49,454 nt of DNA, from the IMG/VR virus record IMGVR_UViG_2519899780_000002; one strand, written 5' to 3'. This stretch comes from a virus (taxonomy: Duplodnaviria > Heunggongvirae > Uroviricota > Caudoviricetes). Below are positions 21,001-24,000 of the stretch, one piece after another. Made by a program: the position numbers. Position 1 is the stretch's first letter, and every line of letters starts with the position of its first letter.

Positions 21001-24000
21001 ACGGAGAGAGAGCCGGAAGCCCCGGTCAGTAACCGAACCCTGATGAGTCTGCTGGCGTCCGGCGAAGACCTGGCATCACAGGGCTGGCGCTATTATCACA
21101 AACCGGCGAGCGGAGACAATGTTAACAAAAACATTGCTGAAGCGGTGGTCAGTGATGCGGGGGCTACGGGAGGTAAGGCCCTGCAACTGAATAAACCGGA
21201 AAACCACATCTGGTTTCTGGAGCATGATGCAGCCGGACAGGGAGTGGAGTTACTGAAGAAGGGGGGACGTGTGAGCGTACGGTTTAAGTTGCCGGGTTCA
21301 CTGGTGCCGAATCGGTTTGCCCTGGGCATTTACTGGCAGTTGTCGTCCCTGCCGGAGGGAGTGACGCTGGCAGAGGAAGGCAACGACATGCTGATGTCCT
21401 TCTTCCTGCAGACGGATGCGACGAACCTGAACGCGATGTACCACAAGAAGCCGAATGCGAAGCTGGATACGTTCGGGGTCTTTGATAACGGATGGCACAC
21501 ACTGGCTTTTGAGTTTGCCGGAAACAACAGCATTCAGGTGACGCCGGTACTGGATGAGAAACGGGGGACGCCGTTCACACTGGTGAAATCTCCGGCATCA
21601 GGGGCGGCGGACAAACTGCAACTGACAGGCATATCAAAGGCGGCGACATATACGCTGCTGATTGACAGTGTGAAGGTGGAAGTGAACAACGCGGATGCCG
21701 CGGCATGATAAAAAAAGCCGCCAGCGGCAGGAACGGAAGCTGGCGGAGGTAATCCCAATGGAGAATGTAAAGAAAAGATGCTTTCGTATATCGGTTTTTT
21801 AAATGAAAACAGTTCTCATTGTCAACCATAACGGTAAGAAACTATGACATTTATTCATCAGGTGATGCTGTACTTCTGTACGGCGGTCTGTGTGCTGTAT
21901 CTTCTTTCGGGTGGGTACAGGGCAGTGCGCGATTTCTGGCGCAGGCAGATTGATAAAAGGGCCGCAGAGAAAATCAGCGCCAGTCAGTCAGCCGGAGCAA
22001 AAACAGAAGCCCCACTCATTCCGGAACAACCTTCTTAATAACCCATTTCAACGAGAAAATCCTATGTCAGAAATAAAATCGCTGGTCACTGCTGAGGCAG
22101 TGAAGGAAGTTCTGCGCTCTGAAGAAGTCCGGAGCGCACTGAAACAGCAACTTCGGCAGAACCTTGAGGCGCGTCTTGATGCAGAAGTGGATTCAATTCT
22201 GGATGAACTGCTGGGCGCACCGACTGTTCCGGAGCCGGAAGGCATTGCGGATGACAGTGCTGTTTCAGATGGCGTCGGGTCTCAGCCTGACGGTAGTGAA
22301 GGGCCTCAGCCTGACGGCGAAATGATGATGTAACCATGCGCAGGGGGTGTCGGTGTGAGCTGATGCCCCACTTGTTGTTGTGAGCTTCCGGATTGCGGGA
22401 GACGGGGTATGTACCAGATGGAAAAAATCACAACAGGTGTGTCATACACCACGTCAGCGGTGGGGACGGGCTACTGGTTCCTGCAGCTGCTGGACAGGGT
22501 TTCCCCGTCTCAGTGGGCGGCAATAGGCGTGCTGGGGAGTCTGTTGTTTGGGCTGCTGACATATCTGACTAACCTGTATTTCAAAATCAGAGAGGACCGT
22601 CGTAAGGCGGCGCGGGGAGAGTAAAGCGATGAAGAAAAAATACGAACTGGTTGTTAAAGGGATAAATAATTACCCGAATAAGATTACTGTTACTGTGGCA
22701 CTGGAAATTGGTGGGTATCCGTCACTGTTGTTGCCAGATGTGGCGATTAGTCTTGACCGTACTGAAGATGCCACGCTGGAGTTTTACGAAGCTGAGGCGA
22801 AAAAGCAGGCGAAGCAGTTTTTCATGGATGTTGCTGCCGGGTTATGTGAAGGGGATGGTCCGTTGCCGGAAAAGCGCCCCGTAATTTTAGAGGCGCAGGA
22901 TGTGTTGATAACCTACAGAGGAAAACTACCGGGAATAATTACTGGTTCTCTGAAGACTCCACCGCTGGCCTGAAGACTTAACATATCCAGGGATTTGAAA
23001 TCGATAAACCCTGATAAATATCCATGAACACCAAAATCAAATACGGCCTGTCGGCTGCCGTTCTGGCGCTGATTGCCGCAGGTGCGCCTGCGCCTGAAAT
23101 CCTCGACCAGTTTCTGGATGAAAAGGAAGGTAACCACACCACGGCATACCGTGATGGCGCGGGTATCTGGACCATCTGCCGCGGTGCCATCCTGGTGGAT
23201 AGTAAACCTGTCGTCCCGGGCATGAAGTTGTCGAAGGAAAAATGCGACCGGGTTAACGCCATTGAGCGTGATAAGGCGCTGGCATGGGTGGAGAAAAACA
23301 TCAGAGTGCCATTGAGTGAACCCCAGAAAGCGGGGATCGCGTCATTCTGTCCGTACAACATTGGCCCCGGTAAGTGTTTTCCGTCGACGTTTTATAAACG
23401 AATTAATGCAGGTGATCGCAGGGGAGCGTGTGAGGCGATTCGCTGGTGGATTAAGGACGGTGGCAGAGACTGCCGTATTCGTTCAAACAACTGCTACGGT
23501 CAGGTATCCCGTCGTGACCAGGAGAGCGCGCTGGCGTGCTGGGGTATCGACAGATAAGCAGAATATTTTGCTGAAAAATAAGGTATGGCCACGCGGGCGG
23601 ATAACACGAAATCCTGCGAACTGACAAAAACTAAGTGAATAAAAGTAAAAACCCCGTTTGTTGGCTGCAAGCGGGGTTTTGTGTTTCCTGACTCTGGAAA
23701 AGTCAAAGGAGAAAGTGTGTTTGATTTTAGCAAACTGATTCGGGAGATTCGAGTGATGGCTGAAAAATTATCCACCTGGAAGTTCATTCTTATCTGGCTG
23801 GTGTTTGTGATTATGGCCTCCGGTTATTTCATCGGTCAGATACGCTGGTGGTGAAATGAACCGCGTACTGTGCGTGGTCATCATTGCCCTGCTGGTGGCC
23901 TGTGGTGCGCTTAGTCTGGGGCTGAATCATTACCGTGATAACGCCATAACCTACAAAGAGCAGCGCGATAAAAAAGTCAGTGAGCTGGAGCTGGCAAATG

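Follow-up and report, generated by a model that had tools for sequence, protein, structure and literature searches.

This work deals with a small gene in the lysis cassette of a Caudoviricetes DNA of 49,454 nucleotides (nt), IMG/VR record IMGVR_UViG_2519899780_000002, hereafter called the window, to whose whole length all positions refer. We found that the open reading frame (ORF) of 114 amino acids (aa) located at 22629..22973 (+ strand, ATG start), between a pinholin gene (S) and a signal-anchor-release (SAR) endolysin gene (R), belongs to the YdfR/DUF1327 family, of which it is an ordinary representative in the usual position. A first-pass annotation had considered this ORF an uncharacterised insertion; instead, the same named family occupies the same place in the Qin prophage of Escherichia coli K-12 and in phages H-19B, BP-4795, Stx2 phage 86 and mEp460, which makes it a standard holin-associated gene of well-studied phages. 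Regarding its role, we lean slightly toward an accessory late protein of Escherichia lambdoid phages with an RNase E/RNA-binding core.

Family identity of the ORF

The 114-aa protein matches Pfam DUF1327 (PF07041) with 153.1 bits (cut-off 25, E 2.4e-45) over profile positions 1-92 of 93, and PHROG 406, a PHROG of unknown function, with E 4e-64; these scores place the ORF far beyond chance. Its DNA is 100% identical to RefSeq genes named 'YdfR family protein', e.g. WP_000731267.1 from E. coli O104:H4, where the gene order is as in the window (tRNAs, SASA esterase, DUF1378, DUF826, holin, YdfR, lysozyme and Rz). BLASTP against YdfR of K-12 gave 35 of 74 identical residues (47%) over aa 1-74 (E 5e-23), and all the invariant residues of the family (Y5, E6, L7, V9, G11, N14, K18, V21, E46, L50, Y53, E54 and A57) are present in the window protein. 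No NCBIfam model and no lysis-category PHROG or Pfam family matched the 114-aa protein, and a search of PADLOC profiles, which cover defence systems only, with the window protein and two long forms yielded nothing at E <= 0.1.

Pfam, RefSeq, EcoCyc-type annotation of K-12 and several phage records already contain the gene, the name of its family and its placement between S and R. In the literature, 'DUF1327' appears only in a passing mention, 'YdfR family' is absent, and the matches to 'YDFR' mostly correspond to a melanoma cell line. Comparative papers on Shiga toxin (Stx) phages cover the S-R-Rz cassette of pinholin and SAR endolysin without discussing the YdfR family ORF (PMC8136144; PMC10462455).

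The S/R joint in related loci

We compared the window with 92 usable related loci, whose sources were annotated records of phages and of E. coli, species representatives of GTDB, and IMG/VR, and in which the holin, the DUF1327 core and R were placed by tblastn. The ATG of the DUF1327 gene lies exactly 4 nt past the holin stop codon in 89 of them; two more have a frameshifted holin with the same joint, and the last one is without upstream reach. Phages H-19B, mEp460 and Evi are among the loci that show this joint. An R21-type lysozyme is found downstream in each sufficiently long locus, except for two disrupted ones. In the window, the pinholin ORF (22409..22624) ends in TAA at 22622-22624, followed by AGCG and by the ATG of the YdfR family gene at 22629, so that 4 nt separate both genes and the ATG begins at the fifth base past the stop; at the other end a spacer of 50 nt, also present in 49 of the 92 loci, separates the last base of the ORF (22973) from the endolysin ATG (23024). 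The ORF and these distances, previously described as a start 5 nt past the pinholin stop and an end 50 nt before the endolysin, were found as such. The same is true of its good ribosome-binding site: the Shine-Dalgarno (SD) sequence GGGGAGAG (22614..22621, + strand), recognized from the sequence and from the alignment of the S/ydfR and S/R joints, is located upstream of the ORF, inside the 3' end of the holin gene, and its GGAG core lies 9 nt from the ATG, a normal SD distance.

In the cassette of phages 933W and 21 (S-R-Rz/Rz1), the holin, the endolysin and the spanins belong to the same families as in the window, and S contains the same embedded ribosome-binding site. Unlike the window, 933W has no YdfR family gene and R itself starts 4 nt past the S stop, while ant lies between R and Rz. 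Thus, GGGGAGAG serves the YdfR family ORF in the window and R in 933W, and the identical joint with the same S-embedded site indicates that the YdfR family gene occupies the S/R joint and takes over the site of R. In this sense, the proposal that the ORF is an extra gene in a cassette of the S21/R21 type is confirmed. The endolysin leader of the window (22974..23023) has no recognizable SD sequence; R of 933W uses the S-embedded site and, in K-12, the start of rrrQ overlaps the ydfR stop. The endolysin-to-holin ratio may differ between these cassette types.

K-12 YdfR (b1555, P76160), encoded in the Qin cryptic prophage, has the gene order essQ-ydfR-rrrQ-rzpQ/rzoQ, with an S21-type holin and an R21-type lysozyme, the same 4-nt joint to the holin stop and a homologous core (aa 1-74). 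It differs from the window protein in the C-terminal 30-40 residues, which are unrelated (KVESYLQHQYSFKIENPANKHERPHHKYL in K-12, the segment called module 2 below in the window), and in that the ydfR stop overlaps the rrrQ start (ATGA), whereas the window has the 50-nt spacer.

The Stx phages H-19B, BP-4795, YYZ-2008 and Stx2 phage 86 carry between S and R ORFs that are 93-97% identical, of the same length class and with the same spacers, and more distant YdfR family copies occur in mEp460 and phage Evi. The window prophage differs from these Stx phages in that stx genes are absent from the interval separating its tRNA genes from the nanS-p-like esterase gene. In the H-19B record (L003, AF034975.3), S, R and Rz are annotated and a 114-aa ORF at 3001..3345, 97% identical to the window protein, is unannotated. 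The holin of phage Evi is 93% identical to that of the window and its core only about 43-45% identical, a contrast that indicates recombination at the S/ydfR joint.

Distribution of the family

Of 5426 complete E. coli genomes, 3005 give a megablast match to the ORF, and identical copies of the ORF are spread over many lineages. Among phage records, tblastn detected a YdfR family gene in 101, versus 369 that match some part of a 1.3-kb S-ORF-R query; together with its absence at the same joint in 933W, these numbers indicate that the gene is accessory. The family is very small, with only 51 representatives at 50% clustering among 1.84 billion proteins, and narrow in its taxonomic range. The search of 185,579 species-representative genomes yielded eight loci, all from Escherichia/Shigella except for two contigs of metagenome-assembled genomes (MAGs). 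These MAGs, labelled Veillonella parvula (L010, JAGZPX010000007.1) and 'Bacillota bacterium' (L012, JAEWTL010000010.1), contain holin-YdfR-lysozyme cassettes of the E. coli type, that of L010 being Qin-like and that of L012 carrying a 206-aa form of YdfR. They probably represent mis-binned contamination and not a wider host range.

The ORF had also been proposed to be a moron of the lysis cassette. This idea stands as far as the presence/absence polymorphism is concerned (the lack of the gene in 933W, 101 versus 369 records) and fails with respect to a promoter or terminator of its own, as none was found. There is no + strand promoter-like site in 21700-24600 and no convincing terminator flanking the ORF, with only a weak hairpin inside it and another hairpin upstream of S nearby. 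A moron in the strict sense, i.e. an autonomous transcription unit, is therefore ruled out. The YdfR family ORF belongs to the late lysis operon, and the late-operon placement claimed previously was borne out. The GC fraction is 0.47-0.52 in the ORF, 0.54-0.60 in S and 0.51-0.55 in R, a minor difference measured in small windows.

Modular anatomy and origin of the 114-aa form

Conservation throughout the family is limited to residues 1-74 and the highly variable 3' part of the gene is a mosaic. The core occurs in two allele classes with only about 45-57% identity between them. In the window, the conserved YdfR/DUF1327 core (aa 1-74; 22629..22850, + strand) is supported by the Pfam match, the identity to K-12 YdfR, the structure prediction and the dN/dS analysis described below. 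It is followed by module 2 (aa 75-112, GDGPLPEKRPVILEAQDVLITYRGKLPGIITGSLKTPP; 22851..22964, + strand), recognized in alignments and predicted to be disordered, which is shared with many relatives; the tails of K-12 and mEp460 are unrelated to it. The last two codons (Leu-Ala) and the stop (22965..22973, + strand) coincide with a deletion/insertion joint with respect to the forms of 176-329 aa, as seen in the DNA alignment with loci L014, L035 and L038. Optional further modules give rise to forms of 176, 183, 268, 296 and 329 aa. In the set of 92 loci, the shortest ORF has 72 aa and the longest 329 aa, the interval before R spans -4 to +536 nt, and the 114-aa form is the commonest one (52 of 92).

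The alignment to a 176-aa form with a 100% identical core shows that about 465 bp are missing from the window; a helical module and a 91-aa convergent ORF are part of this segment. The deletion joint lies at the microhomology CCACC(G/A)CTGGC, and its position indicates that the Leu-Ala codons and the stop are read from what is the spacer of the longer form. From these alignments, the 114-aa protein is best seen as a core plus remnant tail, a putative deletion derivative.

Convergent ORFs were observed in the slot between the core and R of some relatives: L014 has one of 91 aa at 3464..3739 (- strand, PHROG 18136), which overlaps the 3' end of the 176-aa YdfR form, and phage Evi (L005) has one of 98 aa at 2744..3040 (- strand, PHROG 25324). 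In this sense, part of the L014 'C-terminal module' may be a read-through annotation artefact. The C-terminal modules of the long relatives and the convergent small ORFs matched only PHROGs of unknown function, with no additional Pfam domain.

Selection and predicted structure

For the same locus pairs, the ratio of nonsynonymous to synonymous substitution rates (dN/dS) was 0.02-0.23 for S, 0.03-0.17 for R and, where dS is unsaturated, 0.18-0.60 for the DUF1327 core. Values of the core below 1 indicate a real protein-coding gene under moderate purifying selection. Module 2 gave 0.09-1.16, on few changes.

The first-pass annotation had recommended homology searches and structure prediction. While the former led directly to DUF1327/YdfR, the latter provided a predicted beta-beta-beta-alpha core with no significant fold match. 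AlphaFold2 (AF2) places strands at residues 5-14, 18-27 and 38-43 and a helix at 50-73. The 114-aa form reached block-mean values of the predicted local distance difference test (pLDDT) of 73-90 in the core, with one of five models confident; the same core was predicted independently for a 183-aa relative (block-mean pLDDT 68-91, three of five models similar), and module 2 remained below 50 in both runs. A sequence search against solved structures gave a best E of 1.4 with the single protein and of 0.29 with the family profile (tails of Rab GTPases). An RNA-binding fold resembling that of double-stranded RNA-binding domains, which has an alpha-beta-beta-beta-alpha topology, was also considered for the DUF1327 core.

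No transmembrane (TM) segment or signal peptide is evident in the 114-aa protein, as had been noted before: its best 19-residue Kyte-Doolittle window scores 1.18 (1.70 for the holin). The protein is mildly acidic (isoelectric point 5.5) and, in summary, small, soluble and cytoplasmic.

Possible role and alternative explanations

Published data on the K-12 homologue provide the clues about function. Gopel et al. isolated a YdfR 1-72 fragment three times in a bacterial two-hybrid assay with RNase G as bait, and this fragment gave stronger signals with RNase E constructs; moreover, Strep-YdfR co-purified FLAG-Rne1-598 from lysates together with abundant DNase-resistant nucleic acid (Gopel et al., RNA Biol 2026; PMC13232886). 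The interacting part of YdfR is exactly the core that the window protein has in common with it. Among weaker mentions, one screen reported a 3-fold increase in the minimum inhibitory concentration of streptomycin upon ydfR overexpression (PMC12924614).

Judging from its sequence, the ORF would be transcribed as part of the late operon and translated from the ribosome-binding site that lies within the 3' end of S, so that the YdfR family protein is probably made together with the holin. By analogy with its homologue, the conserved core may then bind the catalytic half of the host RNase E (and RNase G) and/or RNA, and the protein would modulate RNA turnover late in infection in a non-essential way, without being part of the hole-forming or wall-degrading machinery. 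This specific proposal, in which binding of the core to the RNase E/G catalytic half and/or to RNA modulates late RNA turnover, is tentative, and we regard it as doubtful on its own; both the sharing of the same partners by the window allele and a consequence of the binding are extrapolated from the K-12 protein. A more elaborate version seems unlikely: the DUF1327 core could be an adaptor, co-translated with the holin, that docks on membrane-bound RNase E (and RNase G), at the catalytic half, and/or on RNA, while the swappable C-terminal modules of the longer members bring different activities to this site.

Several points weigh against an accessory protein with an RNase E/RNA-binding core. 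The link to RNase E comes from one study of a homologue that is 47% identical, where full-length YdfR gave a two-hybrid signal only with Rne1-597, and YdfR overproduction altered few transcripts and left growth unaffected (PMC13232886). RNA could also bridge YdfR and Rne, because the co-purification lacked nuclease treatment (PMC13232886). Moreover, the fold and profile searches gave no significant match, and S and R are several-fold (three- to five-fold) more constrained than the core. The strict association with the holin gene could instead reflect a role in lysis, and many copies are truncated or fused, as expected of a gene of marginal value.

RNase E is targeted by phage proteins such as T7 gp0.7, phiKZ Dip and T4 Srd. 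The window protein would possibly share the same kind of host target with them if the binding described for K-12 YdfR (PMC13232886) holds for its allele; in contrast, no sequence or fold similarity was detected, and its expression would be late and not early.

Other explanations were also considered. The invariant joint with S21-type holins (4 nt, shared ribosome-binding site), the R21-type endolysin downstream and the location in the late operon would suit a lysis regulator, made stoichiometrically with the pinholin, that tunes the triggering time or the release of the SAR endolysin, for instance through binding to the C-terminal tail of S21 in the cytoplasm or to the N-terminus of its antiholin form. 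The K-12 ydfR Keio mutant also scored in an envelope-leakiness screen, in whose supplementary hit lists it appears (PMC3879167), but we suspect that this phenotype is explained by polarity of the cassette on the downstream SAR endolysin gene rrrQ. We consider such a regulator improbable: the protein lacks a TM segment or signal peptide, S21-type holins already own an antiholin through their dual start (here M1/M4), cassettes of the 933W type work without a YdfR family gene, no annotated lysis family of PHROG or Pfam is similar, and overproduction of K-12 YdfR caused no growth defect (PMC13232886). Just as improbable in our judgment is a decaying passenger, that is, a functionless, truncated remnant of the 296-329-aa protein (PHROG 1085) hitch-hiking between two essential genes. 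The variable ORF length (72-329 aa) and gap to R (-4 to +536 nt), the loss of about 465 bp relative to a form with a 100% identical core, the weakly constrained tail of predicted disorder and the core dN/dS several-fold above that of S and R all speak for decay. However, dN/dS of the core is clearly below 1 in every unsaturated comparison (0.18-0.60), alleles with over 50% difference in protein sequence still keep an intact start codon, joint and 74-aa core, and the 114-aa form is the commonest one (52 of 92 loci), with identical copies across many lineages.

The conserved core with its swappable C-terminal modules, the faster evolution of the core compared with its neighbors and the patchy distribution among related phages would also be expected of a host-interaction, anti-defence or superinfection factor, in which an N-terminal targeting domain carries exchangeable C-terminal effectors of host-specific benefit. 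This seems even less likely, given the absence of a promoter of its own for expression in the lysogen and of an annotated domain in any C-terminal module, and given that the window copy is devoid of the putative effector modules; the lack of PADLOC matches points the same way, although that library of defence systems only makes it a weak test. Finally, the ORF may act exclusively in cis, uncoupling R from the ribosome-binding site of the holin and so lowering or delaying endolysin synthesis, as R of 933W uses the SD sequence internal to S while in the window this site serves ydfR and the 50-nt R leader has no SD sequence. We assign very little probability to this effect, since a role as spacer leaves the protein-level conservation of the core unexplained, the overlap of the ydfR stop with the rrrQ start (ATGA) keeps the coupling in K-12, and the spacer has no significant RNA structure.

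Lysis cassette neighbors and other features of the window

The genes that flank the ORF are a pinholin gene and a SAR endolysin gene, in agreement with the previous assignment. The former encodes an S21-type class II holin (pinholin) of 71 aa with dual start M1/M4 (22409..22624, + strand; PF04971 'P21 holin S' 9e-33 and PHROG holin families), labelled 'class II holin family protein' in RefSeq at the identical locus. The spacer of 50 nt before R (22974..23023, + strand) shows no obvious SD sequence; structured RNA was ruled out there by a fold z-score of 0.28. The R21-type SAR endolysin has 177 aa (23024..23557, + strand; PF00959 2.3e-23, PHROG 7 endolysin), with a G/A-rich, SAR-like N-terminus and E35/D44/T50. 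The cassette is completed by the i-spanin Rz (23856..24323, + strand; PF03245 6e-48) and the o-spanin Rz1 embedded in it (24076..24261, + strand; PF06085 1.7e-20).

The gap between R and Rz (23558..23855, 298 nt) contains a strong terminator-like hairpin of 14 bp (23648..23680) and a 57-aa ORF (23681..23854) with a hydrophobic C-terminal stretch (PHROG 6632, unknown function), which ends 1 nt before the Rz ATG; this slot is occupied by ant in 933W. Upstream of the cassette, 19009..21708 comprises three tRNA genes (Met/Ile-CAT, Arg-TCG and Arg-TCT), about 490 bp, and a 653-aa DUF1737/SASA/DUF6645 esterase of the NanS-p type. The lack of stx genes between the tRNAs and the esterase indicates that the prophage is an stx-less relative of Stx phages, and it is collinear with a prophage of E. 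coli O104:H4 2009EL-2050 (L001). Further upstream, the Q antiterminator gene (14925..15296) is directly followed by two minus-strand ORFs within 15276..17668, one of 404 aa without a Pfam match and one of 391 aa that matches PF04245 (similar to the 37-kDa nucleoid-associated protein), and then by an AraC-type helix-turn-helix gene (18267..18980, + strand). PADLOC found no match for either minus-strand ORF. These genes could form an uncharacterised cassette, expressed in the lysogen, within the region from Q to the tRNAs.

Biological significance

The YdfR family gene has been visible since the sequences of K-12 and H-19B were published. It is present in over half of the complete E. coli genomes and in many Stx phages, within the operon governing lysis and the release of toxin. 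Should the binding to RNase E and RNA reported for the K-12 homologue prove genuine and general, the YdfR family protein would represent a lambdoid late protein that touches host RNA decay. Furthermore, if the core acts as an adaptor, the S-R joint of Stx-type phages would be a cargo slot for factors that reprogram host RNA decay, and the stability of stx and late mRNAs may possibly be affected just before lysis.

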